From a virus (Duplodnaviria; Heunggongvirae; Uroviricota; Caudoviricetes), in the IMG/VR virus record IMGVR_UViG_3300028602_000005, positions 178,137-242,136 of that record: 64,000 nt of DNA; one strand, written 5' to 3'. This document shows positions 21,138 through 48,007 of the stretch, piece by piece. Positions within the stretch are counted from its first letter, which is position 1. Each line of letters opens with the position of its first letter. The notes below the pieces were generated by a model that saw only the letters and a list, made by a program, of their open reading frames with translations, searched no databases and had not been told where the DNA came from. A program made the position numbers and the translations under genes.

Positions 21138-21173
21138 ATTTTCTCCTAATCTTTTATATTTTGTGAGTTATTT

Positions 21174-21374
21174 TTAAATTTTAAATTTTATGGAAATCGC
21201 TATAGCTAATGTTATAAATGTTGAGTTGGTGATATAAAAATTTAACTGATGTAAATTCTTATATTCACCATAATTTTGAAAATATATAGTTTCAAATATG
21301 AAACAAATAATAAATATTATAAAACAAATTAATAAAATAATTTTAAAACTTTTATTTTCATTATTTTTATTCAT
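21174..21374 (-). CDS. Small two-TM membrane protein
   Basis: Likely start MNKNN overlaps the beta' stop; two hydrophobic segments. Confidence 0.5.
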   Translation of the reverse strand: MNKNNENKSFKIILLICFIIFIICFIFETIYFQNYGEYKNLHQLNFYITNSTFITLAIAISIKFKI

Positions 21375-24096
21375 TACAAACATTCTCTCCAAAAACCATT
21401 TGATCATATTTACCATAATAATTATATTCATTTTCTTTAAGTCCATCGAGCATACTTTTCTTAGGATTTGAAAATCCAAAACCTACTGCCCAACTTTCTT
21501 TTTCTGGAACACTTTGGATACTATAAAATATCGGTTTAATCTTATTTCTATTTGGATGCAATCTCCATTTTATTCTTCCAACCCACATTAACTGCGCTAC
21601 AATACACTCTATATGAACAAAATTAATATCTTTACTTGAATTATAAATATTAAATAATTTTGAAACAAATAAAGGTAAATTTTCGTGAACTTTTTCAGGA
21701 GTTTTAATATGTAATAATTTTGAAACTTGAGATAAATTATCTATAATATCTGTTTGCATCATATTTGAATTTTCTTCATGCATAACAGCAACGCCAGATG
21801 TATGAAATACTCTCAATATTAATTGAGTATTTATTTCACCCAAACTTTGTGCGGCAATTACTCCTATGAAAGGACTGTGTAATTTTTCATGTAGTCTGCC
21901 ATAACATTTATCGCAAATTTTTTCATTTTGACAATAAATAGGACTTCTTAAATTTATTTTCTTTTTTATTATTTCTTTATAATTTTCATTTGTAATTTCA
22001 ATTAAAATTTTACCATCTGAATAAAACCTTCCAATTAACATTTCAGCTTGTTTTTTATTTTCTATTTTTATTTTGAGATAATCAGTAGTTCCACAATCAG
22101 AAGGACTTTTATCTTTCATTAAATTTATAGCTGTAAATATTAATTTTCTAGATTGATACCCAGATGTTCCGGTATTTATAGCAACATCAAGAAGACCTTT
22201 TCTACATCCATATGTAGATATGAAAAATTCTCTTTCTGTTAAACCATCTAATAAACTGTTTTTTACAGGTTCTTTTAAAATTTTACCTTCGAAATTTGAA
22301 ATAAACCCTCTTGTTAAGAGAACTTGTCTAGCTTGATCCCATTTTCCTCTCGCTCCAGAATATATCAAATATGAAAAATCACAATTATCTTTAACTATAT
22401 TTTCAATGTCTTTTCTTGACACATTCATAACTTGTTTAGAAATTTCTTCTTCACTATAAATACTATCTCTTAAAAAATTTAATTCATTACTACTTAAATT
22501 TATCAAATCTAATGAAATTGTTGATCCATATAAAGTCGCATATTTAAAACCCATATCTTTTATATTATCAAGAACTTTTGAAGTAACATCAGATGAATAA
22601 GAATTTTTAATTTTATTTAATAAATCTAATAATTTATTTTTATCTACCACTTCATTTATAACTTCATAATCTTCTGGAAGACATCTATTAAATAATTCTC
22701 TACCTTTAGTAATTTCCACACCTTTAAAATTAACCTTTTCATTTAATTTATTTATTTTATTATTAGTTAATAAATATACTCCCAAAACAATATCTTGACT
22801 AGGTGTTAATGTTAAATCTTGATTTGCTGGATGAAATAAATTCTTTGAAGGGAGGAATTTTTCCAGAATCTCATTTTTAGTTTTTTCAGAAACTGGAATA
22901 TATACTGCCATTTGATCCCCATCAAAATCTGCATTATATGGTGAACAAACTAGTGGGTGAATTTTTATAACATTATCATGAGAAAGTTTTATTTTAAAAC
23001 CTAAAATACTTAATCTGTGAAGTGATGGTTGTCTATTTAATAAACAAACTTCATTTTCTATAATCTCTTCACATATAGGATATAATTCATAATTTTTAGA
23101 ATCAATACAATTTTCTATATAATTGAGTGCTCTTGGTAATTGACCAAATCTTCCCAATTGAAGTAGTCTTTTCGCAACTTGAACTTTAAATAATTCTAAA
23201 ACCATAAAATATGGTAAAACACATTCATCTAAATTTAAGCTTGGATCTGCTGATATAACTGCTCTACCTGAAAAATCTATTCTCTTACCTAAAATATTTC
23301 CCCTTAATAAACCTTCTTTCTTTGGAAATTTTTCTATTATATGTTCATACAATTCAAATATATCTTTTTGAAATTGTCTAAAATAATTATAATATAAAGT
23401 TTTATCATTAATAATATCTATAATAGTAGATTTTAAAGATTCTTTTTTAATTAGTAATTGCATATAATATTTATTAATTTTATCAACTATTTGATTCTCA
23501 ACAATAGCTGCTCTAGTGGAAGGTCTTAACTCAGGGGGAAGGACAATTATTTTATTTATTAAAAAATTATCTATATTATCTAAAAACATTTTCCAATCAG
23601 GACTTTTAGTTTCAGCATAAACATCTAAAGCTAAAATTTTTACAAATTCAAAAATAGCATCTGTTCGTTCCCATACTTTTATACTTAAATCGTTAGGTCT
23701 TTCATTTGAAACATATAAACCATCTTTATCTTTACATAAAAAACTTTTCTCATCTTTCATTAATTTATTTAAAAATTCTTTAACACTATTTCCAGCTAAA
23801 TTAATAAATAAATCATACATTATAGGATTAACAACTTTCATTGGTAGAACTATTTTGGCAAACCTTCTTCTTCTTTCAGAACTAGAAGATATTACCATTT
23901 TACAAACAGGACACTTTTCGCCTTCTCTAGATTTACCAAAATAAGTACCACATTCACAAGTATAACTCTTCAAAGGACCAAAAATTTTCTCAGAATATAA
24001 ACCATTTGGATCAAATTTATTTTTTGAAAGTATTTTTATTGAAGATACTTCTGGTAAATTCTCACAGAATTCTTCAACATTTAAAATTTTCAGCAT
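21367..24096 (-). CDS. rpoC: Multisubunit RNA polymerase beta'-like subunit (RNAP-1)
   Basis: GL.S..IFGP, Zn ribbon CECG..CPVC, LGKRIDFSGR, NRQPSLH, catalytic NADFDGD, SGARG, GYQSRKL, C...CDKCYG, AQSLGE..TQ...RVFH. Confidence 0.96.
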   Translation of the reverse strand: MLKILNVEEFCENLPEVSSIKILSKNKFDPNGLYSEKIFGPLKSYTCECGTYFGKSREGEKCPVCKMVISSSSERRRRFAKIVLPMKVVNPIMYDLFINLAGNSVKEFLNKLMKDEKSFLCKDKDGLYVSNERPNDLSIKVWERTDAIFEFVKILALDVYAETKSPDWKMFLDNIDNFLINKIIVLPPELRPSTRAAIVENQIVDKINKYYMQLLIKKESLKSTIIDIINDKTLYYNYFRQFQKDIFELYEHIIEKFPKKEGLLRGNILGKRIDFSGRAVISADPSLNLDECVLPYFMVLELFKVQVAKRLLQLGRFGQLPRALNYIENCIDSKNYELYPICEEIIENEVCLLNRQPSLHRLSILGFKIKLSHDNVIKIHPLVCSPYNADFDGDQMAVYIPVSEKTKNEILEKFLPSKNLFHPANQDLTLTPSQDIVLGVYLLTNNKINKLNEKVNFKGVEITKGRELFNRCLPEDYEVINEVVDKNKLLDLLNKIKNSYSSDVTSKVLDNIKDMGFKYATLYGSTISLDLINLSSNELNFLRDSIYSEEEISKQVMNVSRKDIENIVKDNCDFSYLIYSGARGKWDQARQVLLTRGFISNFEGKILKEPVKNSLLDGLTEREFFISTYGCRKGLLDVAINTGTSGYQSRKLIFTAINLMKDKSPSDCGTTDYLKIKIENKKQAEMLIGRFYSDGKILIEITNENYKEIIKKKINLRSPIYCQNEKICDKCYGRLHEKLHSPFIGVIAAQSLGEINTQLILRVFHTSGVAVMHEENSNMMQTDIIDNLSQVSKLLHIKTPEKVHENLPLFVSKLFNIYNSSKDINFVHIECIVAQLMWVGRIKWRLHPNRNKIKPIFYSIQSVPEKESWAVGFGFSNPKKSMLDGLKENEYNYYGKYDQMVFGENVCNE

Positions 24097-24559: not shown

Positions 24560-24914
24560 ATATTACCTCCAACCAGGGTCTAAAATAACAGTCGTCATAA
24601 TTGAATATTCTTAAAAAATATTCAATCTTATTACATATTTCATCTAAATTTTCTACTTCAACTACTTCTTCATAAATATTATCAGGAAAACAAAATTCAT
24701 TAGTTTCTGGATTTGCATTTGGGTGTCTACAATCTAAAAAAACATTTTTTATTTTTAAATCATCTGAAAGAATAATAGTATATGAATTAATTACAAAATC
24801 TTCAGTTAATGATTTAATATTTTTAATTCTACGATTATCTATAACTTTTGTAGGAACTATTCTCTTATCCACTATAATTTTTCTAAATTCTCTTAATTTC
24901 GCTTTCAGCATCAC
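24537..24914 (-). CDS. Putative E2 (UBC-fold)-like protein
   Basis: HPNANPETNEFC resembles the UBC HPN...C signature; coupled to a ThiF gene. Confidence 0.5.
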   Translation of the reverse strand: MMLKAKLREFRKIIVDKRIVPTKVIDNRRIKNIKSLTEDFVINSYTIILSDDLKIKNVFLDCRHPNANPETNEFCFPDNIYEEVVEVENLDEICNKIEYFLRIFNYDDCYFRPWLEVIFENEDYK

Positions 24915-25792
24915 GCTGCTCCCGTTTCTGGTATTAACTCTATCATTTTATTTACTTTAGAAAAAGATACTAAATAACTTTGATATGGTAAATTTGATTT
25001 TTCTATTAAATCACCTAAATATGAAAATATTTCTTCTTCTTCTTTAAAAAATTTAGAATCTACTTTTCTATGGTAAAAATAAGCTTCTCTATCACCAATA
25101 TAGATATTTATATCATTTTTATTATTTTCTATTAATATATTTTTAGAATTATCGATTAAATCAGGAAATAAATCAAAATATTTTTTATCTGAATCTAATA
25201 TTAATTCTTGAGATTTATTGTTTTTATTTATTTTATTGATAATAGATCTACTTATATAATCTAGATCTATTTTATGCTGCATACCTTTTTTCATTAAACT
25301 ATCTATGATTCCACTGAATATAAAATTTGTAACACATAACGCAGCATTTTTCAAGTCATTTTTTTTCAAAATAGCAGTATATTTACCTTCAATATTTTTA
25401 TCAAAAATAATATTTTTCCTACAATCTATAATTACATATCTACCTGAAATATAAGTTCTAATATCTATTAAATCATTTCTATTATAATTAAAATCTCTTG
25501 AATCTATCACTAAATCATATTTATCATCTAAAATAGTTTCATTTTCTATGAATTTTTCATTCATTTTAATAATTTGAATTTCTTCATTATCTATTTTTAT
25601 CAATTTTTCCAAAACATCAACTTTATATTTTCCAACATCTTTCTTTTTATATATACTATTTTTTATATTCCTTTCATCGACAATATCATAATCGATAATT
25701 AATATTTTTTCTATACCTTCTGTTTCTGATATAAATTTGGCAATGAAACCTCCAAGAGTTCCAAGTCCAATTACTGCAATTTTTTTAAACAC
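24911..25792 (-). CDS. ThiF/E1-like protein with a possible C-terminal ubiquitin-like domain
   Basis: IAVIGLGTLGG, D.DIV...N, G..KV, VIDSRD; ends MIELIPETGAA. Confidence 0.75.
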   Translation of the reverse strand: MFKKIAVIGLGTLGGFIAKFISETEGIEKILIIDYDIVDERNIKNSIYKKKDVGKYKVDVLEKLIKIDNEEIQIIKMNEKFIENETILDDKYDLVIDSRDFNYNRNDLIDIRTYISGRYVIIDCRKNIIFDKNIEGKYTAILKKNDLKNAALCVTNFIFSGIIDSLMKKGMQHKIDLDYISRSIINKINKNNKSQELILDSDKKYFDLFPDLIDNSKNILIENNKNDINIYIGDREAYFYHRKVDSKFFKEEEEIFSYLGDLIEKSNLPYQSYLVSFSKVNKMIELIPETGAA

Positions 25793-25810
25793 TTATAAAA
25801 ATCCTCCACA

Positions 25811-26077
25811 TTAAATTATAGTAATTTTTTCATTTTTTGACATTTCCTTCGCTTTTTCGCATATTTCATCCAATTCATCTTTTAATAAATAAATTTCTTT
25901 TAAAGATAATCTACCCAACTTCAAAAATTTTTCATCTCCATCATTTATGTTTTTTCTTGAAAGTTGAATCTTTGGATCACCATTATTATATGACATAATA
26001 GAAATATCTATAAAAGAATTTTCCGAAACTTCTATTGTTTTTTTAAATAAACAAACATCTTTTGATTTATCGAACAC
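25811..26077 (-). CDS. PC4/YdbC-like ssDNA-binding protein
   Basis: ISIMSYNNGDPKIQLSR...KLGRLSLKE. Confidence 0.6.
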   Translation of the reverse strand: MFDKSKDVCLFKKTIEVSENSFIDISIMSYNNGDPKIQLSRKNINDGDEKFLKLGRLSLKEIYLLKDELDEICEKAKEMSKNEKITII

Positions 26078-26105
26078 GAAAAAAAATCTCCTTTTTAAAT
26101 TTAAT

Positions 26106-26142
26106 AATCCATAGATGAAGAATATATCTTCATCTATGGATT
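26106..26142 (-). terminator. Hairpin / terminator
   Basis: 16-bp perfect stem AATCCATAGATGAAGA/TCTTCATCTATGGATT. Confidence 0.65.
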
Positions 26143-26151
26143 TTATATTAT

Positions 26152-26691
26152 TTACTTACTTGAAATATATATTTCTGAATTTGTTGGGGTTGGCATATAA
26201 TAAGCTTTATAAGGAAAAATAGAAGCTAATAATACCATTGGATAATATTGAGGAATTTCAACATTTAGATATGGCTCTCTTTTTAAAACTTCAATTTCAT
26301 TGTTTTTTACAGGAATAAATTTTATTTTATAATTTAAACCACTTTCGTTTAAATTTTTTACCAAATTTTGAATTTCATCAGAAGAATCAAATTTAAATAA
26401 TTTATTTAAAATGCGATTTCTTCTATTCATTATATTTACAAGATTTATAACAGAGTTATTTTTTTCGTTTTTATAAGCGTCATAAGCTCTTGAAAATGAT
26501 CTACCTCTTCCTTCCACTTTATGATGGTTATCTAAAATTGATCTAATAGAGATTCCTCTTGAAACAATTCGATCACCTACAATTAAAAGGCATACGGTAG
26601 CATATGCTCCGAGAATTGGTGATCTTAGATAATAAAATTTTGCCTTATCTACACCAATTTCCTTACATTTCTCATTAATATCAACCTTCAT
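26152..26691 (-). CDS. Hypothetical protein
   Basis: 179 aa, GAGGA RBS. Confidence 0.7.
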   Translation of the reverse strand: MKVDINEKCKEIGVDKAKFYYLRSPILGAYATVCLLIVGDRIVSRGISIRSILDNHHKVEGRGRSFSRAYDAYKNEKNNSVINLVNIMNRRNRILNKLFKFDSSDEIQNLVKNLNESGLNYKIKFIPVKNNEIEVLKREPYLNVEIPQYYPMVLLASIFPYKAYYMPTPTNSEIYISSK

Positions 26692-26720
26692 AATACAATC
26701 CTCTTTCTTTTTATATTATA

Positions 26721-26744
26721 GGGGGTAGTTAAAAAACTACCCCC
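26721..26744 (-). terminator. GC-rich hairpin after the Ubl gene
   Basis: GGGGGTAGTT/AACTACCCCC. Confidence 0.65.
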
Positions 26745-26762
26745 ATAAATATTCCCTAAATA

Positions 26763-27245
26763 TTAACCCTTCTGGCCAGAAGGACGAACAAATTCAACCT
26801 TATCTTCTGACTTAAGGATTTCTGAACCCTTAACAATCTTCCCATTGAGAACGATTGTAGAAGCAGGATTAATATTAAGAATATCCTTAAGAACAGCAAA
26901 ACCCTCTTCAATAGACATTCCACTGAGAGGATATTCACCAACGAATGCTCCATAAGAAACAAAAACATTCTTACTGTATTTCATTCCATCAGGCGCATTT
27001 TCATCCTTAAGAGTAGCATTGACGCTAACTGAAACAACTTTAGGCATTCCTGTGCTTACAACAGTTGCCGCTGTTTCTTTCGCAGGACCATCTGCTGAAC
27101 GCAACACTGTATCTTGAGATGAAATAATTTTTGAAATAATTTCACTCTTTGTCATTTTTGATGCATTGGGAATGTTCTTCTGAAGACATATTACTCTTAA
27201 TTCTCTTGTGGTCTTGTTTTCCAGTTCTACTTGTGTGTAATTCAT
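26763..27245 (-). CDS. Ubiquitin-like (beta-grasp) protein with an N-terminal Rho-N/HeH-like domain
   Basis: N-terminal L..KT..ELR.IC....I...SKM.K.E.I..I; C-terminal VLNG......L...D.VEFVRPSGQKG ending in Gly. Confidence 0.75.
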   Translation of the reverse strand: MNYTQVELENKTTRELRVICLQKNIPNASKMTKSEIISKIISSQDTVLRSADGPAKETAATVVSTGMPKVVSVSVNATLKDENAPDGMKYSKNVFVSYGAFVGEYPLSGMSIEEGFAVLKDILNINPASTIVLNGKIVKGSEILKSEDKVEFVRPSGQKG

Positions 27246-27320
27246 ACTTCGTTTACTCCTTTTTCTCTTTTTTGGTTTTTTTGGTTTTTAATTACTAATT
27301 TAAATTAAAAATATATTCGA

Positions 27321-28028
27321 CTAAATAATTATTTCTCTTCTTATAGCATTTACCCTAACAGTATTTATATCAAAATAAATATCATTAGGAATAAAATTGT
27401 TTATTTTATTATCCTTTAAACAATTTTTGACATTATAAAAAATAGCACACATCAATATTGCCGCAAAACAATTTGCAAAATATAATTGCGGTTCAGATTG
27501 ACTTAATTCTTCACATGACATTTCATGTGGCATTTTTCCAACTGGATTTTCTATTTCTGGATGATAATCCGTAATTTTAGGTGTTAAACTATTTCCATTT
27601 AATTTTATAAATAGTTGTGCGTTTCCATCTTCATATTCATTCCCACCAGATATTAAAATTACATTATTTAATTTACTTGCATGATCTGAAATTAATTTTC
27701 TAGTTGGATGATTATCAACGCATATAAAAATTATACAATTATCTTTAATGATAGAATTAATATTATCTTTATTAATATAATCATTAAATGATGAAAAACA
27801 AATATTTTTAAATTTTCTATTAAGTTCTTCTAGTTTAGATTCAGCTTTATTTTTCATATTTTCAAATACTTGTCTTTCAAGATTCTTATGTTCGTATGAA
27901 TCACCATCAATTAATACAATATCAAAACTATCCTTTATTGAATAGTTTATAAATCTTGAAATTTTTTCTGACAATTCTGAACCAATACCACCCAAACCGA
28001 CAATGTATATTTTATCAAAATTATCCAT
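27321..28028 (-). CDS. ThiF/E1-like adenylyltransferase
   Basis: VGLGGIGS, DGD.YE..NLERQ, KAE, CVDN..TR, SGGNE, SCEE...PQ....N. Confidence 0.9.
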   Translation of the reverse strand: MDNFDKIYIVGLGGIGSELSEKISRFINYSIKDSFDIVLIDGDSYEHKNLERQVFENMKNKAESKLEELNRKFKNICFSSFNDYINKDNINSIIKDNCIIFICVDNHPTRKLISDHASKLNNVILISGGNEYEDGNAQLFIKLNGNSLTPKITDYHPEIENPVGKMPHEMSCEELSQSEPQLYFANCFAAILMCAIFYNVKNCLKDNKINNFIPNDIYFDINTVRVNAIRREIII

Positions 28029-28031
28029 TAA

Positions 28032-29171
28032 TTATTCTCCATTTACAGATTCTAATAAATTTACACTCTCATTCATAGTGTTAATGCCGATATCTCCTAA
28101 AGATATTTCCGTTAAAGAATCTTGAAACTCCAGAAAATAATCTCTTAAGTAAAATTTTTTTATTTTTTCACTATCATTTTTTTTATCTTCTAATTTTAAA
28201 TTTTCTAAAGTTTCTTCATCAACATAAACACCATTAATTAGAAAATGTTTAACCCATTCACCATTTTTATTTTTTGCATAATACATTGGTACTGACGGAT
28301 ATTTATTATTACCGTCACCACTTTTATTAATGTAATTATAAATGTTTCTTTCTGGTTTTGAAACTTTACTTAACCACAATTTATTAAAATTCTTTTCATT
28401 ACCATCCAAAATAAAGTTTGTTAAATATCTTTCAATTTTTTTATAAGATTTCTTTTCCTCCTTTCTATCAAATAAATTTTTATATCCTAAAATCTCTGCA
28501 TAATTTTCCCACCAAATACTTTCTGAATCTGATTTATAAGAAACTGTTGTATATGGTTCTTCTAATTCAACAAATTTTATTCCTTCGATATAATCTTCAG
28601 GATTCTTTTTTATTCTTATATTATTAGATACAAGAGAACAAACCACAGACACTTCTTCTTTATTAAGATTACCCACTGTTATATGAATACCATCAAAATA
28701 TTTCTCATCATTTACATCTGTTCCAGAATGAAAAGCTCCGAAATCAGAATGACTATGAATTGAACCTATCAACACCAAATTATCATCGTCATCTTTTTCA
28801 GTCCTTCCTTCATATTTAACGGAAGCAGATGAGACTTCTTGATCTGGAACATCTAAGCTATATTCTAATGTATTTATATTTAAATATAACAGAATTACAG
28901 ATTCAGTTTTATATTTTTCATAAATCGATTTTAAGAAATTAAAAGCTTTCTTCGTTATTTTTGTGGGTATTTTAGGAATATTTACATTTACACTTGTTTC
29001 CATTTTTTCTAAAAATGGAATTTTTTCTACAGGAACTATGCTTTGAATAAATCCCAATTTCTTTTTAAGATAAATACCATTTCCATTTATAATGTAACAT
29101 ATATTATTTTCTTCTATTATTTTTTTACACTCTTCACTTCCATCATAAACAACAACCGGAAATAAAATCAT
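28032..29171 (-). CDS. JAB/MPN+ metallopeptidase
   Basis: E (TES) ... VP.Q.VS ... GSIHSH....AFHSGTD..DE, GIHITVG. Confidence 0.9.
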   Translation of the reverse strand: MILFPVVVYDGSEECKKIIEENNICYIINGNGIYLKKKLGFIQSIVPVEKIPFLEKMETSVNVNIPKIPTKITKKAFNFLKSIYEKYKTESVILLYLNINTLEYSLDVPDQEVSSASVKYEGRTEKDDDDNLVLIGSIHSHSDFGAFHSGTDVNDEKYFDGIHITVGNLNKEEVSVVCSLVSNNIRIKKNPEDYIEGIKFVELEEPYTTVSYKSDSESIWWENYAEILGYKNLFDRKEEKKSYKKIERYLTNFILDGNEKNFNKLWLSKVSKPERNIYNYINKSGDGNNKYPSVPMYYAKNKNGEWVKHFLINGVYVDEETLENLKLEDKKNDSEKIKKFYLRDYFLEFQDSLTEISLGDIGINTMNESVNLLESVNGE

Positions 29172-32149: not shown

Positions 32150-33223
32150 TTAATTTTTATGTAATAGATCTAATAATAAATCATCTATCATTTCATCATT
32201 TTCATTTAATATTTTAGAATGAATCATGCAAGTCCAATTACATTTTTCACATAGTTTATTTTTATCTTCTTTAAAAGAATTTTTTAAATTTAAATTTAAT
32301 GTTCCTGTTTTATCAAGTAAATTTTTTATATTGAATTTCTTAGGGGTGTCAATACCCATTATTCTTAAACATAATCTTATACTACCATCAGAATCAATTG
32401 TAATATTATGAACTTCTTCATCTATTTTACAATCATTATTTGATGGAAGATGTTTGAATATTATTGGAAGAAAATCATCTCTCATATTGATGGATAAATT
32501 TTCTTCCATCATTTTTTCAAAAATTTCACAAAGTTCTGAACTTTTAAATACCATATTATCATATGATGTAATATTTGAAAAATCATAAAAGTTATTTTTA
32601 GATATATCTAAAAATGTTATATCACTATTTATCCCAATTCTAGTTAAAATTTTAACTAATGGGTATAAATATGATAAAGATTCCTTTGTAACCGTTATCT
32701 CTGCAACCAAATCATCAATATATCCAACATATTCAGATATATTAAAAAATCCTTCCAAACTTTTTTTAAAAATATCTTCATCATATATTTTATCACTTAA
32801 AATTATTGGATCTATTGAAACTGTTAAACTTTTTAAATAACTGATATTATTTAATAGTTCTTTGAATTTACTTTTTATTTCCCCAGAATAATTTGTTATG
32901 AGTGTATAATTTATATCATTATCATTACAGTAGTTTATAATTTTTGCCAAATCATCTCTCAGTAATGGTTCACCACCGTAGAAAATGTGAAATATATCGG
33001 GATTATGTCTTTTAAATAGATATAAGGTTGAAATGATATCTTCTGTTGAAATTTCATTTTTGTAAAAATAAGATAAATCTTTATATTCATTAGGTTTATT
33101 AACGTAATTTTTAGATATCCTACAATATGAACAATTCATGTTACATCTTCTCGTCAATAACCAGTTGACTATATGAATTTTATCCAAAATAAACCCCCTT
33201 TTCAAATATTCAATAGAAAACAA
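32150..33223 (-). CDS. Radical SAM protein with a C-terminal auxiliary Fe-S (SPASM/twitch-like) region
   Basis: CNMNCSYC, YGGEPLLR, C...I..DG.I..C, CEKCNWTC. Confidence 0.88.
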   Translation of the reverse strand: MFSIEYLKRGFILDKIHIVNWLLTRRCNMNCSYCRISKNYVNKPNEYKDLSYFYKNEISTEDIISTLYLFKRHNPDIFHIFYGGEPLLRDDLAKIINYCNDNDINYTLITNYSGEIKSKFKELLNNISYLKSLTVSIDPIILSDKIYDEDIFKKSLEGFFNISEYVGYIDDLVAEITVTKESLSYLYPLVKILTRIGINSDITFLDISKNNFYDFSNITSYDNMVFKSSELCEIFEKMMEENLSINMRDDFLPIIFKHLPSNNDCKIDEEVHNITIDSDGSIRLCLRIMGIDTPKKFNIKNLLDKTGTLNLNLKNSFKEDKNKLCEKCNWTCMIHSKILNENDEMIDDLLLDLLHKN

Positions 33224-36205: not shown

Positions 36206-36280
36206 TGGTACTCCTGTAGAGAATTGAACTCTAATTTTAAGATTGAAGGTCTTACGTCCTAACCGTTAGACGACAGGAGC
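36206..36280 (-). tRNA. tRNA-Glu(UUC), C33 variant
   Basis: Cloverleaf, anticodon arm TAAGA-CCTTCAA-TCTTA, encoded CCA. Confidence 0.85.
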
Positions 36281-36289
36281 ATTTGTTTT

Positions 36290-37171
36290 TTAAATAATTT
36301 TTATTTGTGTTTCTTCTACAAATAGAATTGGATATATAGGATGTATTATTTTCTTCTTTTTAAGAGATATTTCATTAAATCTATAATTTATATTAAAAAA
36401 TACATCACCTAAATCTTTAAATTTATATTTATCGAAATAATATTCCATTCTACCATCTATTTCTGATTTTATAATATCTAAATTAAAATAATTATCTGAC
36501 TTTAAAATTCTACAAAGTTCAACAGTTTCCCAAGTATATCCTAATTCTCCCCAATCAGATTGACCCTTAAACAAATCAGCAGATGGTTCTTGAAATATTA
36601 AAGTATCATCAAGTCCAAATTTTTTACCTAATAATTTAATATTTCTTTTTGAAATAGCTTTTAAAAGATTAAAATGACCTAAACCATCACCAAACATTGT
36701 ATAATATCCGATAAAATCTTCATCGGCATTGGATGTACTTACAACTAAAGCATTATATCTTCCAGCAATATTATTTAAATTAAAAGCAATTAATCTCGAT
36801 AAAATATTTCCATTATGAAATTTAACCTCATCATTTGTATAATTTAATAATTTATCCAATGTATGCATTCTATTGATAATTTCATTGAAATTATTACTAA
36901 CATTTAAACTTATAAGGTTATAATTACTATTCTCAAAAAATTTTTCTACTAAAACTTTTTTATTTGAATTAAAATCAGTCTCGATAAATACTGGAATAAT
37001 ATCAATTTTAAAATGTTTATTTAAATTATCAAGAATTGAAAATGTTACAAGTGAATCAATTCCACCAGATATTCCTAAGACAATTTTTCTTCCCATTAAA
37101 TTTTCTTTTTTAAACATTTTAAAAACACAATCCATATAAAATTCGTAATCAAAATTAGGGAAAACTATCAT
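36290..37171 (-). CDS. nadE: NH3-dependent NAD+ synthetase
   Basis: GISGGIDS, N..SR, TSN..E...GY.T.FGDG, PSADL..GQ.D..ELG. Confidence 0.88.
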   Translation of the reverse strand: MIVFPNFDYEFYMDCVFKMFKKENLMGRKIVLGISGGIDSLVTFSILDNLNKHFKIDIIPVFIETDFNSNKKVLVEKFFENSNYNLISLNVSNNFNEIINRMHTLDKLLNYTNDEVKFHNGNILSRLIAFNLNNIAGRYNALVVSTSNADEDFIGYYTMFGDGLGHFNLLKAISKRNIKLLGKKFGLDDTLIFQEPSADLFKGQSDWGELGYTWETVELCRILKSDNYFNLDIIKSEIDGRMEYYFDKYKFKDLGDVFFNINYRFNEISLKKKKIIHPIYPILFVEETQIKII

Positions 37172-37204
37172 TTTTTAAAACCTTTCTTTTTTTATAAATA
37201 AATA

Positions 37205-37281
37205 TGGCTGTGGGGGTGGGGATCGAACCCACGAATCTCCTGATTAACAGTCAGGTGCTCTACCTACTGAGCTACCCCACA
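37205..37281 (-). tRNA. tRNA-Asn(GUU)
   Basis: CCTGA-CTGTTAA-TCAGG arm, TTCGA, CCA. Confidence 0.93.
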
Positions 37282-37290
37282 GTAAAATTT

Positions 37291-37692
37291 TTAAGAATCT
37301 AGTTTTTTTGCCACACGAATAATATTCTGTTTTTTATTTATTTTTTTACTCTTTAATAGATTTTCTTTGGAAAAAATCATTTCTATTATTTCAATTGCAT
37401 GATCCAAGCTATCCCATATCATATCTTGTGAAATTTTAAAATCTATTGATATATCATCTATATAATTATTTTCCAAAAGATCTTCTTCACAGAAAGATCC
37501 TCTTGTGTCTAAAAAGAACATAATAATACCAGTCATAGTAAAAATATAAAAATCTTCTTTAGATGAAATAATAATATTATTTTTTATCATATATTTATTA
37601 ACATCTGTAAGAGATTTAGAAAGACCTTCTTTATATGTTTCAATAAAAGATTTTCCATTATCAATAATTTCGTATGTATTAAAAAGTGTCAT
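37291..37692 (-). CDS. Hypothetical protein
   Basis: Likely start MTLFN just after the upstream stop, with GGAG RBS. Confidence 0.6.
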   Translation of the reverse strand: MTLFNTYEIIDNGKSFIETYKEGLSKSLTDVNKYMIKNNIIISSKEDFYIFTMTGIIMFFLDTRGSFCEEDLLENNYIDDISIDFKISQDMIWDSLDHAIEIIEMIFSKENLLKSKKINKKQNIIRVAKKLDS

Positions 37693-37693
37693 A

Positions 37694-38218
37694 TCATCTT
37701 CTCCATTCCATTGTTTGACACATATCATTCTTTGTATCTTTATTTTTTGAATATTTTAATTCAACTGATTCTTTAATATTTTTATCTTTAATTTCTTCTG
37801 CATTTTCCATTCGAATTTTAGTATCTACCCTTTTATTTAATTCTTTTTTTATCTTTTCGAATAATTCTAAATTTATTCTTTCAAAATGAAATTCTTCTTC
37901 AGATGGTTTAAATTTAAATGATAAATATATATTTCCTTTGTATTCTAAAATTTCATTATATAATAATATTGTATCATTACCTTCAATATATTTTTCATAA
38001 TTCTCATTATTTATAGTAATAGTTACATTTTGAATTAATAATGATTTATCAATATTACTCAAATTTACTATCCTACCATCAGTTTTATCATCTAAAGTTA
38101 TATTCTCTATTTTATATGTATTTTTAAATATTAATAAAAAATCCATTGTTGGTGGCATACATGAAGATATCAAAAATAAACATATCAAAATAATTGAAGT
38201 TTGAAGAAATTTTAACAT
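37694..38218 (-). CDS. Putative lipoprotein
   Basis: Signal peptide ending in a lipobox-like ISSC. Confidence 0.55.
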   Translation of the reverse strand: MLKFLQTSIILICLFLISSCMPPTMDFLLIFKNTYKIENITLDDKTDGRIVNLSNIDKSLLIQNVTITINNENYEKYIEGNDTILLYNEILEYKGNIYLSFKFKPSEEEFHFERINLELFEKIKKELNKRVDTKIRMENAEEIKDKNIKESVELKYSKNKDTKNDMCQTMEWRR

Positions 38219-38248
38219 TTTTTAATCCTTTCTATTAATTTTTTAAAA

Positions 38249-38325
38249 TGGCGGGACCAACGGGATTCTAACCCGTAGCCTCATGGTTGACAGCCATGCG
38301 TTCTAACCATTAGAACTATGGCCCC
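38249..38325 (-). tRNA. tRNA-Asp(GUC)
   Basis: CATGG-CTGTCAA-CCATG arm, CCA; atypical T-loop TTAGAAT. Confidence 0.88.
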
Positions 38326-38337
38326 GTATTTTTTAAT

Positions 38338-38784
38338 TTATTCATATAAATCACTTCTAAGTTCATTAAAAAGATCATTATCACTCAAAGGAACTATATC
38401 TGAAAATGAATCATGAATAAATAAATCTAGTATTTTCAATATACATGTCAAAGAATTTTTAAAATACAATTTATACCAAGTTAATTGACATCTTATTAAT
38501 ATATATGGTGATTCAGTTTCAGATTTATCGTCAATGTTTATTCCGATTAAAGGATCGTAAATTGCATCTATTTTTTTTGTAAAATGTCCTTTACCAATTC
38601 CCAATAAATACAATCTTTTATGATCCGATTCTCTAGGTCCGATCATCCAAATATCAGGTATATTATTAATTGTTTCTGAATCAGGTGCTTCTTTTACAAT
38701 TAAACCCTTAATATTTTTAATCGAATCTTCTATCCAAGGAGCTTCAGTAAATTCTCCATAAAACTGTTCAGATATATCTTTCAT
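38338..38784 (-). CDS. Hypothetical protein
   Basis: 148 aa, AGGTG RBS. Confidence 0.65.
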   Translation of the reverse strand: MKDISEQFYGEFTEAPWIEDSIKNIKGLIVKEAPDSETINNIPDIWMIGPRESDHKRLYLLGIGKGHFTKKIDAIYDPLIGINIDDKSETESPYILIRCQLTWYKLYFKNSLTCILKILDLFIHDSFSDIVPLSDNDLFNELRSDLYE

Positions 38785-38813
38785 TTTAATTCACCTTTAA
38801 CTATTTTCATCAA

Positions 38814-40073
38814 CTATTGTTTCTGTTTCCATATTTGAACTTCAGATCCTTTCATATTATGAATAGGTTTAATTTTAAAAAGAACATTTACAGTTGGTTC
38901 AATTAATAATTCTATTAATTCTGAGTCTTTATAAACTTCTGGAGATTCATCTATTGTTGTTTCATTTAAATTTGTTGAAAATATACCTCTCATATCATAT
39001 TGATAATTTTCAACTTTTAAAGTTTTCTTTGCTTTAGATCTGCTTAATACTCGACCAGATCCATGTGGAGCAGAACAATTCCAATCTGTATTTGATTTTC
39101 CTTCACAGATTAAAATTCCATCTCTCATATTAAATGGGATTATACACCTTTCACCCTTATATGCTCTTATCGCCCCTTTTCTTATAATATTATCTTCAAA
39201 ACAGTAATAATTATGTATTGTTTCGATTTTGTCAAGTATTTTTTTATTTAAAATATCATTGACTATTATTTCTATAATCTTTTCTCTGTTTAAAGAAGCA
39301 AATTCTTGAACGAATTTCATATCTTGAAGGTAAGATTCCATATCTTCACCCTCTAAATATGATAATTCTCTTGAAACATTATCAAGTTGAAATTTATCTT
39401 TTAATTTTTTTATTTTAAGTTGTATTTCATTTTTATCTAATGTTTCATCTAAAACCTTTTTAACTTCTTTCTTAAATAAAATTTCTCTTTTTGATTCTAT
39501 ATTTTTTTCTGCTCTTTTTTGCCAATATTCACATGTTACTTTTCCAAGATGCCTAGATCCTGTATGAACAGTTAACCAAACATTTTCTTCTGGATCTTTT
39601 CCAAATTCAATAAAGTGATTTCCGCCACCTAATGTTCCAATAGATTTTAGAAAATATTCATTTTTATTATTCCATCTTTTTTGACAAGATTTCTCAAACC
39701 AATCATAAGTAAATTCTTTTTTAAATAAAACATTAATTCCATTAATTACTTTTTCTCTTATATTTATTCCAAATGGAATTAATTCTCTTATCTTTTTATC
39801 AACTTCATCATGATCTAATTCAATCTTTCCAAGATTGACTGATAACATGCCTCAAGAACCATCAACTCCAACAATGTTTGGAATTATTTTATCTCCTTTT
39901 TCCATTGTGAATCCGATAACTGCTCCTTTTCCAGCATGAGTATCTGGCATCACAATAATTGGATTTGGAAATGCGGGATTATTAACCATTTGATTTATTT
40001 GTTTTAAACACTCTTCTTCAACTTCATCAATCATAATATACGCATTTGTATATTTTCCAGTAATTACTATCAT
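38814..40073 (-). CDS. rtcB: RtcB RNA ligase with an in-frame TGA at the catalytic Cys (candidate selenoprotein)
   Basis: Track ORFs 39852..40073 and 38814..39848 are in one frame: PDTHAGKG...VGVDGS-TGA-GM..., GTLGGGNHFIE, VHTGSR, HNY, RKGA, SAPHGSGR, DESP..YK. 419 codons if read through. Confidence 0.9.
39809..39849 (-). promoter_or_regulatory. Putative bacterial-type SECIS element
   Basis: Directly 3' of the UGA: CAUG-UU-AUC-AG-UCAAUCUU-GGA-AAGAUUGA-AUUA-GAU-CAUG; the G-starting apical loop begins 21 nt after the UGA. Confidence 0.7.
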
Positions 40074-40075
40074 TT

Positions 40076-40474
40076 TTAATCCTTTAGAAATTTATTATAA
40101 AAATCTTTTTCTCCTTGATGAAATCTTCCTTCTTCGGTAAGTCCTTTATTGAAGAGTATATTTTTGATTCTTAATAGATATTTCTCTTTTAAAAATTTTT
40201 TACTTGGTTTTCGATCCATAGATAGTAATGTTAATGCATCACCCAAACACTCTCTTAGATCGCTATCATTTTCTCTTTTACATTTTTTTCTATATTCTAT
40301 TAAATTTTCACTGATTCTCAATAAAATTTGTGGGTAAAATCTAACATATTTATCAATCATTAAAAGAACACTTTTTAGATGTTTTTCTTCTTCTTCATTT
40401 AATAAAACCTTCATTAAATTATTAAGGTCATCAAAAATTTTATTTCTATCTTCTTCTTGTATTCTCTTATCCAT
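40076..40474 (-). CDS. Hypothetical protein
   Basis: 132 aa, AGGAG RBS. Confidence 0.65.
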   Translation of the reverse strand: MDKRIQEEDRNKIFDDLNNLMKVLLNEEEEKHLKSVLLMIDKYVRFYPQILLRISENLIEYRKKCKRENDSDLRECLGDALTLLSMDRKPSKKFLKEKYLLRIKNILFNKGLTEEGRFHQGEKDFYNKFLKD

Positions 40475-40760
40475 TTATAATCTCCTTTACAGAAACTCTA
40501 ACTACTTTTCCAAAACCATTTTCTTCACAATATTTAAATCCATCTGGAGAACACATTCTAACTAAAAATTCCTTTTTATAAATGAAATCTAGATCATTAT
40601 CTTTTAAATCCAAATATCCATAATAATCCCCATTTTCATCGATTTCAACTTCGACACCAATTATTTCATTTTCTGGAACACCACAATATTTAACAACTTT
40701 TGGACTAACATAGAAATGATCAAAATATCCATCTTTTCTTTTATGTGCATATAATTTCAT
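40467..40760 (-). CDS. Hypothetical protein
   Basis: 97 aa, coupled to the upstream gene. Confidence 0.65.
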   Translation of the reverse strand: MKLYAHKRKDGYFDHFYVSPKVVKYCGVPENEIIGVEVEIDENGDYYGYLDLKDNDLDFIYKKEFLVRMCSPDGFKYCEENGFGKVVRVSVKEIING

Positions 40761-41038
40761 ATAGACTGTATCTCTTTCAGAAATTTTTTGAAGTTTGGAC
40801 CAGATTTTGCCATCTTAACTTTTTTATCATTTATTTTATAAATATCAGGATAAAAAACTTCTATAATTTTTTCTTCGACTAAATAATCTTCAAATTCTTT
40901 TATTGGCCCCCACATTACATCATCATCTACCAATCTTAACATTAAAAGTATATAATATTTACTTAATTCTAATCCCTCTTTTAATATTATTCTTTTTTGC
41001 TCATCTGAAACCGGAGGTCTATCTATTAAACTTCCCAT
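40757..41038 (-). CDS. Hypothetical protein
   Basis: Likely start MGSLID after AAGGA; the track's longer start lies within an RNA element. Confidence 0.6.
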   Translation of the reverse strand: MGSLIDRPPVSDEQKRIILKEGLELSKYYILLMLRLVDDDVMWGPIKEFEDYLVEEKIIEVFYPDIYKINDKKVKMAKSGPNFKKFLKEIQSI

Positions 41039-41067
41039 CAAATTTTCCTTTAAATAATTTTGAAAAA

Positions 41068-41147
41068 TGGTTAGTGGGAACAATAGAATTAAAAGGGCTG
41101 CTAGAAATTATTCTAACCCACTTACATTAATCTATTGAACCCACTCT
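41068..41147 (-). ncRNA. CCA-terminated rod-shaped RNA in the tRNA array
   Basis: AGUGGG/CCCACU, CAAUAGA/UCUAUUG, UUAA/UUAA, GGGU/GCCC, UAGAA/UUCUA; ends AACCA; immediately 3' of tRNA-Pro. Confidence 0.55.
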
Positions 41148-41154
41148 TATATAT

Positions 41155-41232
41155 TGGTCGGAGTAGAAGGACTTGAACCTTCGAAACCCCTCGCTCCCAA
41201 AGCGAGTGCTCTACCAACTGAGCTACACTCCG
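41155..41232 (-). tRNA. tRNA-Pro(UGG)
   Basis: CTCGC-TTTGGGA-GCGAG arm, C1-G72, CCA. Confidence 0.93.
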
Positions 41233-41242
41233 ATATTTTTAT

Positions 41243-41533
41243 TTACCAAGGTAAAACCATTTTAACCTCAAGATTATCATATTTAAATATATGACTAAGT
41301 TTTTCACTGTCAAATCTTATTGAATGCGATAATTCTGAATTAACTGAAATAACACATTCATAGTGTTCTCCAATAATTTTTAATAAAATATCATACTCTG
41401 TATTTTCAAATGAAATATCATATATTCTTGATTTTTTTAATTTATCAAATATAAAAAATCCTTTTTCAATCCACTTAAGTTTATTATTTACTATATCATT
41501 TATAATTTTCATTTTATAATTTTCAAATTTCAT
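41243..41533 (-). CDS. Hypothetical protein
   Basis: 96 aa, GGAG RBS. Confidence 0.6.
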   Translation of the reverse strand: MKFENYKMKIINDIVNNKLKWIEKGFFIFDKLKKSRIYDISFENTEYDILLKIIGEHYECVISVNSELSHSIRFDSEKLSHIFKYDNLEVKMVLPW

Positions 41534-41555
41534 TGTTCACTCCAAAATTAAAAAA

Positions 41556-41631
41556 TGGAGCCGGTAGAAGGAATCGAACCCTCGACAAGATGATTACAAA
41601 ACATCTGCTCTACCTACTGAGCTATACCGGC
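41556..41631 (-). tRNA. tRNA-Thr(UGU)
   Basis: GATGT-TTTGTAA-TCATC arm (U31-U39 mismatch), CCA. Confidence 0.9.
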
Positions 41632-41636
41632 TCAAA

Positions 41637-41728
41637 GAGCTAAAAATGGCTTACATTTGATTATTTTTATTATAGACATAGTTTATATCTAATATTTAAA
41701 ATAATCTAATCTCATCTGTTTCTAGCTC
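41637..41728 (-). ncRNA. Long irregular hairpin RNA between tRNA-Lys and tRNA-Thr
   Basis: GAGCUAGAAA/UUUUUAGCUC, GAUUAUUUU/AAAAUAAUC, UAGAUAU/AUGUCUA; the G-U pairs work on the minus strand. Confidence 0.45.
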
Positions 41729-41741
41729 ATTTTAAATTATA

Positions 41742-41818
41742 TGGTGAGGATGGTGAGGATCGAACTCACAACTTACGGATTAAAGGTCCGTTACTCTATC
41801 CAATTGAGTTACATCCCC
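41742..41818 (-). tRNA. tRNA-Lys(UUU), C33 variant
   Basis: ACGGA-CCTTTAA-TCCGT arm, TTCGA, CCA. Confidence 0.85.
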
Positions 41819-41819
41819 T

Positions 41820-41879
41820 TGGTCATGGGAAGGGCAATACCCTATTCAAAATACTCTAGAAATATTTTTAATCCCATGA
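41820..41879 (-). ncRNA. D-arm-less tRNA-like RNA, loop UUCUAGA
   Basis: Acceptor CAUGGGA/UCCCAUG-A-CCA; 7-bp stem AAAAUAU/GUAUUUU with a 7-nt loop centred on CUA; mini T-arm AGGG/CCCU. Confidence 0.65.
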
Positions 41880-41887
41880 TATTATAT

Positions 41888-41958
41888 TGGCTCACATGGA
41901 AGGACTTTAACCTTCATAAAAGAACTCTAGATATCCTTTTATTCTTCCCGACATATGA
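41888..41958 (-). ncRNA. D-arm-less tRNA-like RNA, loop AUCUAGA
   Basis: Acceptor UCAUAUG/CAUGUGA-G-CCA; 10-bp stem AUAAAAGGAU/GUUCUUUUAU with a 7-nt loop centred on CUA; T-arm GAAGG-UUAAAGU-CCUUC. Confidence 0.7.
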
Positions 41959-41969
41959 ATATTTCAGAT

Positions 41970-42047
41970 TGGAGGGGATAGAGAGATTCGAACTCTCAAC
42001 CCTCAGATTAGAAGTCTGATGCTCTAGATCCATTGAGCTATATCCCC
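41970..42047 (-). tRNA. tRNA-Arg(UCU)
   Basis: TCAGA-CTTCTAA-TCTGA arm, A20, CCA. Confidence 0.93.
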
Positions 42048-42049
42048 TT

Positions 42050-42123
42050 TGGCTCTCAGATTAGGGTTCGAACCTAAATTGGAGGATTCAAAGTCCTCTA
42101 TCCTACCATTAGACGATCTGAGA
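42050..42123 (-). tRNA. tRNA-Gln(UUG)
   Basis: GAGGA-CTTTGAA-TCCTC arm, U1-A72, G73, CCA. Confidence 0.93.
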
Positions 42124-42132
42124 ATAAACTTT

Positions 42133-42834
42133 TTATCCTATACCAAAATTTGAAACACTTTTCAATTCTTTTGGTACACACTCAGGATCATAAATATATT
42201 CTTCTTTTTCTTTATCCCATTTAAACCAAAAACATTCAGTGTAAGGATAAAGACCTTCATAAGTTTTTTCAATTACTGCAAAATTATAATCACCTTCATT
42301 AATATCGCAATAATTTTTTTCTACGGTTTCTCTTGAATGATTATAATTTGAAAACCAACCAACAATTCTCTCTTTTTTAATATCAGCTTTTAAAAACATC
42401 AATGTTGTTATAGTATAAATCCAATAATGCATAACAATCCCATTAGCATTATCAAAATCTATATATTGAAGTTTTACTTTTTCCCAATCTATATTTTCAC
42501 TCATTTCTCTAATAAATCCAATAGAAATTGGACAATCAAAACATATATCACTTATTTTCAAATCTAATTGTTCTAATTTGGATTCATCTACTTCTATATA
42601 AAAATCAATCTCAAAATATTTTTTATCTATATTGATATTTTTTAATATAAATGATTCACAAACTCCAATACATCCAATATCTCTTGTATATACCCCAACA
42701 GGATATATTTTTCTTTTTTCTGGATCATCTTTATCATTTTCAAATTTATTGAAAAAATTCAAAAACCTAAAATTTCCAACTTCTGATAAATCATCTTTAT
42801 TGTCAAAGAACTTATAAGTAATCACTTTTTCCAT
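42133..42834 (-). CDS. Hypothetical protein (possibly two fused domains)
   Basis: 233 aa; C-terminal RIVGWF...DINE..YNFAVIE...EGLY...F.IG. Confidence 0.65.
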   Translation of the reverse strand: MEKVITYKFFDNKDDLSEVGNFRFLNFFNKFENDKDDPEKRKIYPVGVYTRDIGCIGVCESFILKNINIDKKYFEIDFYIEVDESKLEQLDLKISDICFDCPISIGFIREMSENIDWEKVKLQYIDFDNANGIVMHYWIYTITTLMFLKADIKKERIVGWFSNYNHSRETVEKNYCDINEGDYNFAVIEKTYEGLYPYTECFWFKWDKEKEEYIYDPECVPKELKSVSNFGIG

Positions 42835-43073
42835 ATATTCTTTATTCTCCCAATTAAATTGAAAAATCTTCTAAAATCCCAAACTGGCCAAATATGATCT
42901 CTTCCCCCAAAAATATTATCACATATGAAACTATTTATTCCTGTTACTTTATAAATTTTTGTTTTTTTATAATCATCTTTAAAATATAACCATTCAAAAA
43001 ATTTTTTAAATTTTTCCAAATTTAATATTTGTACATAAATCTTTCTAATTCCTCGAAAATAACTGATTTCCAT
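42822..43073 (-). CDS. Hypothetical protein
   Basis: 83 aa overlapping its neighbours. Confidence 0.45.
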   Translation of the reverse strand: MEISYFRGIRKIYVQILNLEKFKKFFEWLYFKDDYKKTKIYKVTGINSFICDNIFGGRDHIWPVWDFRRFFNLIGRIKNIWKK

Positions 43074-43441
43074 AATTTATTTTCTTTCTTTGTTTTAATA
43101 TACATTTTAATGAAAATTAAAATCATAAAATATATTAATCCTGGAATTGTTATAAACCAAATTAATGAAGCTATAATTAATTTAAAACTTAAAAATATAA
43201 TAAAGAATACATATGTTTCTATTAATGAATAGTATGTACTATTAAAAGAAATATGAAATAATCTATCAAGAAATTCATTTATCCTTATTTTTTCTTCATT
43301 AATATATAAATAAGAAGAATAAACTATTTGTAAAATTATCAAAATTAATATAAAAAACAAAGATATTTGAAGGAAAACTAAAAATACTTGAACATAATTA
43401 TCTATTAAAAAATACAATAAATATTCGATAACCTTTAACAT
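43022..43441 (-). CDS. Membrane protein
   Basis: 2-3 hydrophobic segments, AGGTG RBS. Confidence 0.6.
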   Translation of the reverse strand: MLKVIEYLLYFLIDNYVQVFLVFLQISLFFILILIILQIVYSSYLYINEEKIRINEFLDRLFHISFNSTYYSLIETYVFFIIFLSFKLIIASLIWFITIPGLIYFMILIFIKMYIKTKKENKLWKSVIFEELERFMYKY

Positions 43442-43465
43442 TTTTTCACCTTTTTTCTTTAAAAA

Positions 43466-43555
43466 TGGAGGTAGGAGTGGGATTTGAACCCACGGACCTT
43501 TTACGATCTCTAGTTTTCAAGACTAGCTCCATAAACCTAACTCGGACATCCTACC
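43466..43555 (-). tRNA. tRNA-Ser(UGA)
   Basis: CTAGT-CTTGAAA-ACTAG arm, long variable arm, CCA. Confidence 0.9.
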
Positions 43556-43566
43556 TTAATATAAAT

Positions 43567-43661
43567 TGGCAGAAGGGATAGGATTCGAACCTACGGGTCT
43601 ACTTTTATTTTCAACCAATGGTTTAGCAAACCATCTCTTTAAGCCACTCAGACACCCTTCT
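43567..43661 (-). tRNA. tRNA-Ser(GCU)
   Basis: ATGGT-TTGCTAA-ACCAT arm, long variable arm, G73, CCA. Confidence 0.9.
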
Positions 43662-47566: not shown

Positions 47567-48007
47567 TTATAATATACCTGTAAATTCCACCTCTGAATTT
47601 TTACCTTCTGTAATTTTTACACACAATAAATCAATATTATCATATCCTAAGAGTTTATTTTTCATATCATAATATATAAATTTTGCAATAGATTCTATTG
47701 TAGGATTAGATAGAAGTTTAATAAATTTTAAATCGCAATCATGATCATCATTAGAAAGAAGTTTTTCTATATTCGAACTTAATGAATCTTCATAATTATA
47801 AATAAAAGCATGATCAATAAGTGAAACGGAATCTTTTATTATTTTTTCTAATTCCTTAAAATCTATCACCATACCTCTATTGTCAAGTTTTTTTGACATT
47901 ACAGTTACTGAAATTTCAAGATCATGCCCATGAATATTTTTACATACTTCATGTCCACTTAGTCTATGACCTATTGAAATATTTACACTCTTTGTTAAAT
48001 AAAACAT
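47567..48007 (-). CDS. queD: 6-carboxytetrahydropterin synthase / PTPS family
   Basis: GHRL...C.NIHGH, GMVIDF, DHA, PT.E.IA, E. Confidence 0.88.
   Translation of the reverse strand: MFYLTKSVNISIGHRLSGHEVCKNIHGHDLEISVTVMSKKLDNRGMVIDFKELEKIIKDSVSLIDHAFIYNYEDSLSSNIEKLLSNDDHDCDLKFIKLLSNPTIESIAKFIYYDMKNKLLGYDNIDLLCVKITEGKNSEVEFTGIL

Follow-up and report, generated by a model that had tools for sequence, protein, structure and literature searches.

The locus considered here raises the question of how an in-frame TGA, standing at the codon for the catalytic cysteine of a phage-encoded RNA ligase, RtcB, is read: as selenocysteine (Sec), as cysteine, or simply as a stop. It lies in a window of 64,000 nucleotides (the whole stretch of DNA that was analyzed, to which coordinates refer unless G000 is named) from the 254,910-bp record of an uncultured jumbo phage with 25% GC content and a CheckV completeness of 82%. 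The phage capsid is of the T4 type, and genes for a multisubunit RNA polymerase are present in two sets, with subunits encoded at positions 18030 to 24096 and 57870 to 61985 of the window and at G000 241707 to 244058.

The rtcB frame occupies positions 38814 to 40073 of the minus strand and comprises 419 codons with TAG as the terminator; a Shine-Dalgarno-like AAGGA (40080 to 40084, minus strand) stands ahead of its start codon. Read from 40073 to 38814, its only internal stop is the TGA of codon 74 (39854 to 39852, minus strand), in the motif V-G-V-D-G-S-*-G-M, so that the two RtcB "halves" described in an earlier, sequence-only reading are indeed one frame interrupted by TGA alone. The read-through protein matches the Pfam profile PF01139 (RtcB) over the whole domain (residues 25 to 409, E value of 3.6e-56, 191.6 bits against a cutoff of 27), while its scores for the NCBIfam RtcB subfamily models lie under their cutoffs. 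When the protein is aligned with 119 close homologues, codon 74 falls in a column that is Cys in all 119; the DINC Cys of structures 2epg and 4dwr lies in this column, which corresponds to the Mn-bridging Cys98 of the Pyrococcus horikoshii enzyme (Pho). One study states that this Cys binds both Mn ions, that replacing it with Ala kills the enzyme, and that oxidation inactivates RtcB at this residue (PMC10630183).

With U read as C, all 47 invariant columns of the alignment are matched by the phage protein, including 38 of 38 downstream of codon 74, which bears out the earlier statement that the remaining RtcB motifs are intact. Among these columns are Asp71, His153, His170, His287, and His337, whose counterparts among the metal ligands and the guanylylated His of Pho are Asp95, His203, His234, His329, and His404; four of the five residues were aligned to solved structures, and the pairing of His287 with His329 is deduced from the motif. 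The unusual G-S preceding codon 74 can be regarded as natural variation, since D-G-S-C is present in four Cys homologues (P0020, P0180, P0200, and P0297). The phage protein is off consensus at 9 of the 123 columns that are at least 90% conserved, a level of departure (at least nine) reached by only 3 of the 119 homologues, and most of these changes look conservative. Its nearest full-length relatives are about 55% identical and all carry Cys, and a locus search with the phage protein retrieved no viral relative. An intron or intein inserted at the codon 74 site was excluded, as the gene is colinear with its homologues.

Elsewhere in this genome TGA behaves as an ordinary stop, terminating 13 of the 69 minus-strand ORFs in the window and 43 of the 305 ORFs of at least 100 codons in the record. 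Twenty TGA codons have at least 50 open codons on both sides, and a wider scan gave 96; that of rtcB alone was judged to be intragenic, and genome-wide opal recoding was thereby ruled out. The gene sits between tRNA-Asp and tRNA-Pro in a cluster of ten tRNA genes (36206 to 43661, minus strand), none with a UCA anticodon, which we regard as context and not as a recoding signal. Across the 255-kb record, ARAGORN at default settings gave no UCA tRNA, Rfam gave no tRNA-Sec above its cutoff, and no sel gene was present among the 197 proteins scanned (a scan that left aside smaller ORFs and the 80-100 kb region); any recoding must be supplied by the host. Three intron-containing "SeC" tRNA calls that appeared at relaxed ARAGORN settings were treated as noise. 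A 74-nt tRNA with a CUA (amber) anticodon lies outside the window and away from the main cluster (G000:C1:17284-17359, plus strand); it is possibly an amber suppressor, despite which TAG is the stop of 38 of the 305 long ORFs, rtcB included.

Genes for RlaP, a TROVE protein, an ATP-dependent RNA ligase, and a CCA-adding-type enzyme are present in the record as well, and an RNA repair gene set of this kind has been described for jumbo phages (PMC7824862). Other gene groups were noted: two ThiF (E1-like) genes are clustered with a Prok-JAB gene at 24911 to 29171, suggesting a ubiquitin-like or sulfur-transfer module, and genes for FolE2, a radical SAM protein, and a PTPS/QueD-like protein (17153 to 18019, 32150 to 33223, and 47567 to 48007) together with that for a queuosine salvage protein (G000 71618 to 72508) likely constitute a 7-deazaguanine pathway. 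A promoter scan of the phage rose barely above shuffled sequences (32 versus 24.7 +/- 4.8).

Downstream of the UGA, folding confirmed the perfect 8-bp stem and the G-starting loop 21 nt past the UGA that the sequence-only reading had reported. The predicted SECIS upper hairpin (39820 to 39838, minus strand), UCAAUCUU-GGA-AAGAUUGA, consists of eight Watson-Crick pairs closing a GGA loop (39828 to 39830), with pair probabilities of 0.67 to 0.99 in a 200-nt context. The lower stem claimed in that reading held up in part: four base pairs are present and complete a predicted stem-loop of -10.4 kcal/mol (39809 to 39849, minus strand), but this weak stem lies behind a 7x7 internal loop and varies with the segment that is folded. 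The bacterial SECIS (bSECIS) model, as set out in a 2026 review (PMC13188914), takes a loop of 3 to 9 nt with a G within its first two positions, a stem of 4 to 16 bp, a spacing of 16 to 37, and a minimum free energy of -7.5 or lower, and the phage hairpin (3 nt, GGA, 8 bp, 21 nt, and -10.4 kcal/mol) falls inside every one of these published constraints. Rfam returned no SECIS match for the hairpin, and its folding energy was not unusual against dinucleotide shuffles (z from -0.09 to -1.9 in six folded segments).

The stem is more telling under codon-aware controls than by energy against shuffles. It uses three codons that are rare in the genome (GTC supplies 5% of Val codons, CTT 18% of those for Leu, and AAG 11% of those for Lys). 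In sets of 20,000 synonymous recodings, a G-loop stem of at least eight pairs appeared only 10 times when codon use followed the genome, 11 times when it followed the gene itself, and 73 times when it was uniform; such a stem follows 0.64% of 9,769 random phage codons and none of 136 distinct viral Cys-RtcB stretches. As a positive control we took selD genes from three bacterial groups, dropping 6 of 73 loci that had no motif match. A strict rule (GGN triloop, at least six pairs, and a spacing of 16 to 22) was passed by the phage rtcB, by 24 of 50 UGA-selD, by 0 of 17 Cys-selD, and by 0 of 138 viral Cys-RtcB genes, with a background of 101 in 64,378 phage codons and 19 in 3,000 recodings. The loose published model passed 44 of 50 UGA-selD, 3 of 17 Cys-selD, and 21 of 138 viral Cys-RtcB genes, and its background was 220 in 3,000 phage codons and 153 in 3,000 recodings. 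Both strict rules were set after the hairpin had been seen, and the likelihood ratio is for this reason placed between about 6 and 80.

Among the UGA-selD genes, the best hairpin had a GGN triloop in 17 of 29 from Desulfobacterota, all 7 from Spirochaetota, and 2 of 13 from Clostridia, and this was so for none of the 17 Cys-selD genes; of the 29 Desulfobacterota genes, 10 had GGA as their best loop, and in 11 the loop stood at +20. Among the three groups sampled, the loop type of the phage hairpin thus seems to fit Desulfobacterota or Spirochaetota better than Clostridia. A Gram-positive SECIS with a 7-bp stem and a GGU loop, very similar to the phage hairpin, is shown in a preprint (bioRxiv 2022.07.06.499078).

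The alternative that survives these results best, which we nevertheless consider unlikely, is that rtcB, as an accessory gene, was recently inactivated by a nonsense mutation from TGT to TGA and that the hairpin is coincidental. A single base change would be enough, TGT making up 947 of the 995 phage Cys codons; the phage RtcB is one of the more divergent proteins in its set of homologues, a second RNA ligase is encoded by the phage, and the candidate was chosen out of a very large scan. Against this, the coincidence required is 0.05 to 0.6% for the strict hairpin (5 to 15% for the loose model), 419 codons have been kept without a further lesion, and runs from three studies (2018 and 2022) contain rtcB pieces that do not differ from the window, the codon itself being covered only by run X1.

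The nonsense explanation also draws on the search for relatives. The sequence-only reading had looked to homologues with TGA/Cys alternation at this column and a covarying hairpin, and no such member of the clade was encountered at the DNA level. DNA patterns for the TGA motif gave no RtcB among 34, 30, and 11 viral matches or among 44 metagenome matches, an archaeal-type TGA pattern gave no match in viruses, and none of 28 species-genome matches belonged to the phage RtcB clade; as for sensitivity, closely similar protein motifs fit 82 to 97 of the 119 close homologues, and one of the patterns, when written with Cys, hits about 1,800 viral stretches. At the 159 viral rtcB loci (of 164) that cover the Cys column, the codon was TGT or TGC in all 159. 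Seven uncultured phages have a capsid 65 to 74% identical to that of our phage, and an rtcB match was obtained in two of them, both with Cys, the records of the other five being 19 to 59% complete. With Cys in both rtcB-bearing sister phages and no UGA relative of the clade at the DNA level, the hairpin has no support from covariation.

Three of the 28 species-genome matches are bacterial rtcB genes of the Escherichia coli type with TGA at the Cys codon, which we read as chance nonsense alleles: none of the three passes either SECIS rule and one has a second stop, although tRNA-Sec is present in two of the three genomes. Their existence makes the nonsense explanation of the phage gene a real one. 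In all, four bacterial rtcB genes (L234, L251, L260, and L338) with a TGA, which stands at the Cys codon in three of them and elsewhere in the fourth, lack a SECIS-like hairpin, and all four are read as nonsense alleles.

At the protein level, two RtcB records (P0135 and P0138) stop at VGVDQS, immediately before the Cys column, and a comparison of the phage C-half with 1.84 billion representatives gave as its best match P0167, which clusters with P0317 to P0321 (six records from nine contigs), each beginning at a Met two residues past that column, with the catalytic motifs tested kept in all five full-length records. These may be two halves of one UGA gene, and, with P0211, they are candidates for either a second UGA lineage or an intron-split rtcB. 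P0167 is not sister to the phage rtcB, and its peptide cannot encode the GGA triloop stem (five pairs at most). Other RtcB fragments end near the Cys column in different ways. Intein-like insertions at the catalytic Cys are seen in P0103 (with PF14890), L270 to L272, and L305. Six N-terminal fragments (P0130 to P0133, P0136, and P0137), some with 6 to 12 members, diverge at VGVDI or VGVDIGC; several of their tails resemble an out-of-frame GCGM motif, and a recurring extra base or four-base step at the Gly codon is possible.

A further comparison is offered by bacterial RtcB of the archaeal type. Among 151 genomes from one phylum, RtcB was found in 110, with a TGA inside the match in five, of which four were read (G125, with three TGA codons, was left out): two are archaeal-type genes with TGA at the Cys, one has TGA elsewhere, and one is a nonsense case of the E. 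coli type. The two archaeal-type genes (L336 and L337) carry a hairpin loop at +20/21, and tRNA-Sec is present in their genomes; the loose SECIS test is passed by L337 and failed by L336, which has a bulge and an upper stem of 4 bp. The upstream gene resembles one for an archease. L336 and L337 provide a precedent for Sec at this column; they share with the phage gene the UGA column and the loop spacing but are only 23% identical to it and have G-rich loops of the GGUC or GGGUU type in place of the GGA triloop. A quick tree of 51 rows places the phage rtcB among Cys genes, separated from L336 and L337 by long, fully supported branches. This placement and the low identity make transfer of a bacterial Sec gene unlikely, and it is likely that the phage Sec form arose from a Cys gene within its own clade, separately from bacterial UGA-RtcB. 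With somewhat less assurance than for Sec insertion itself, we lean toward the view that the phage lineage evolved its own selenoenzyme, in which the codon for the Mn-bridging Cys became UGA and the codons after it were shaped into a host-type SECIS, independently of bacterial Sec-RtcB.

A hairpin-recoded UGA might also be read as Cys, or as a mixture of Cys and Sec, if the host had a selC*-type tRNA-Cys(UCA) with SelB*, and the product would be an ordinary Cys enzyme. The study that bears on this point reports tRNA-Cys(UCA) in anaerobes including Syntrophobacterales and Desulfobacterales and tests of UGA suppression (PMC5389517), and the phage hairpin resembles the selD elements of Desulfobacterota and Spirochaetota. 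The same study, however, gives the full Sec apparatus for all genomes with such tRNAs (PMC5389517), so that Sec would still be available there; moreover, selC*-type tRNAs are confined to a few lineages, and no such tRNA was found in the phage. We therefore hold Cys insertion to be improbable, more so than inactivation by a nonsense mutation.

Whether the TGA is real in the sampled population was addressed with public runs, and the codon stood unchanged where the sequence-only reading had wanted reads inspected (39852 to 39854): a 708-nt contig from X1 (word depth of 3.9), a run that may come from the source sample, covers 39751 to 39980 with no differences. Two runs of other studies, X2 and X3, carry other rtcB pieces, also with no differences, codon 74 being outside their coverage. 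Two collections list the 73-residue N-half, from two contigs in all, of which the longer measures 280 kb compared with 255 kb here. The runs that hold the phage sequence are landfill metagenomes, and no RNA data set is among those listed. An assembly error at the TGA is unlikely, and the weakest explanation as a whole, that the TGA came about through faulty sequencing or assembly or that the halves are separate polypeptides formed by a stop and a restart at Met76, has little to commend it: the low depth at the codon in the sole covering run, possibly the source sample, and the ATG two codons past the stop speak for it, but the X1 contig agrees letter for letter and the N-half recurs on two contigs, whereas a split product would be without residue 74, where substitution by Ala kills RtcB (PMC10630183), and no usably spaced Shine-Dalgarno precedes Met76.

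Insertion of Sec by the SelA/SelB/SelC of the host, as first proposed from the sequence, is accordingly the best-supported reading, on three lines of evidence: (i) the UGA stands at an invariant metal ligand, (ii) genome-wide recoding is excluded, and (iii) the hairpin passes codon-aware, positive, and negative controls. It is drawn from one phage lineage, and we regard it as probable that host SelB inserts Sec at the rtcB UGA. In this event, SelB with Sec-tRNA would bind the GGA loop and decode the UGA as Sec, giving a predicted full-length Sec-RtcB of 419 residues in which Sec74 would bridge the two Mn ions together with Asp71, His153, His170, and His287, and His337 would be the guanylylated residue. 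The host would be a Sec-using anaerobe. The enzyme may reseal RNAs cut by host nucleases, which have 2',3'-cyclic or 3'-phosphate and 5'-OH ends, and may do so alongside the CCA-adding, TROVE, RNA ligase, and RlaP gene products of the phage.

The search for this host brought few leads. The capsid has no close cultured relative (24% identity at best), and plasmid matches were weak. The phage carries an IS200/IS605 element (TnpA and TnpB) at G000 133130 to 134604, with a transposase cluster of 23 members; the transposase was not found at an E value of 1e-45 in 391, 251, and 281 sampled genomes of three phyla, a search that was run without a positive control and is uninformative. The phage RtcB clade matched 1 of 401 sampled Desulfobacterota genomes, by a fragment, and 13 of 201 Spirochaetota genomes, with Cys in all 11 that had a readable motif.

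The significance of such an enzyme would lie in its chemistry as well as in its biology. Catalogued prokaryotic selenoproteins are nearly all redox or redox-like, and the phage gene likely encodes a selenoenzyme outside these usual roles; a Sec bridging two Mn ions in an RNA ligase would provide a direct test of the role of selenium outside redox catalysis, and since oxidative inactivation of RtcB occurs at the same Cys, Sec and Cys forms could be compared in one scaffold. If the reading is true, several consequences follow: (i) RtcB would have acquired selenium at its binuclear Mn site on at least two occasions, and separate phage and bacterial origins would argue for a selective advantage and not for accident; (ii) phage RNA repair would depend on the Sec supply of the host; (iii) phages would be able to recruit SelB, and gene callers would split such genes in two; and (iv) the shape of the SECIS may hint at the host.

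Within the literature covered, which excluded subscription journals and preprint supplements, we found no published RtcB selenoprotein or phage selenoprotein, and the most likely description of the phage rtcB is that of a SECIS-directed Sec codon in an RNA ligase; the recoding system itself is known, and we found no published case of it in this enzyme family or in this type of genome. The main text of the 2026 review of 119 prokaryotic selenoprotein families, in its accessible part, includes no RtcB, ligase, PF01139, or phage (PMC13188914); BSepDB has no RtcB in its text or in one supplementary file, which is possibly incomplete; and the available portion of a report on huge phages from wastewater notes tRNA-Sec genes and names no selenoprotein (PMC10747093).

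Several known systems come close to the one proposed here, among them the archaeal-type UGA-RtcB genes of bacteria compared above. The Cys-type RtcB enzymes of P. horikoshii (PH1602, PDB 1uc2/4dwr), Thermus thermophilus (TTHA1785, 2epg), and E. coli have in common with the phage protein a full-length PF01139 domain and the Asp, His, and guanylylation motifs, and differ from it in having a Cys codon where the phage has UGA and a SECIS-like hairpin. The RtcB of jumbo phages that is encoded in tRNA clusters resembles the phage gene in being accompanied by tRNAs, a CCA-adding enzyme, TROVE, RlaP, and an ATP-dependent RNA ligase (PMC7824862). Bacterial genes with an in-ORF SECIS, as in selD of Desulfobacterota and Spirochaetota, show the same UGA at the Cys column, perfect stem, GGN triloop, and similar spacing, whereas the phage gene is viral and encodes an RNA ligase and not a redox enzyme; the fdhF gene of E. 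coli is a bacterial selenoprotein gene of this kind, whose in-ORF SECIS is read by SelB. Finally, the glutathione peroxidase selenoproteins of poxviruses are a precedent for a virus that uses the Sec machinery of its host, but in contrast to the phage rtcB, they are redox enzymes and belong to viruses of eukaryotic hosts.
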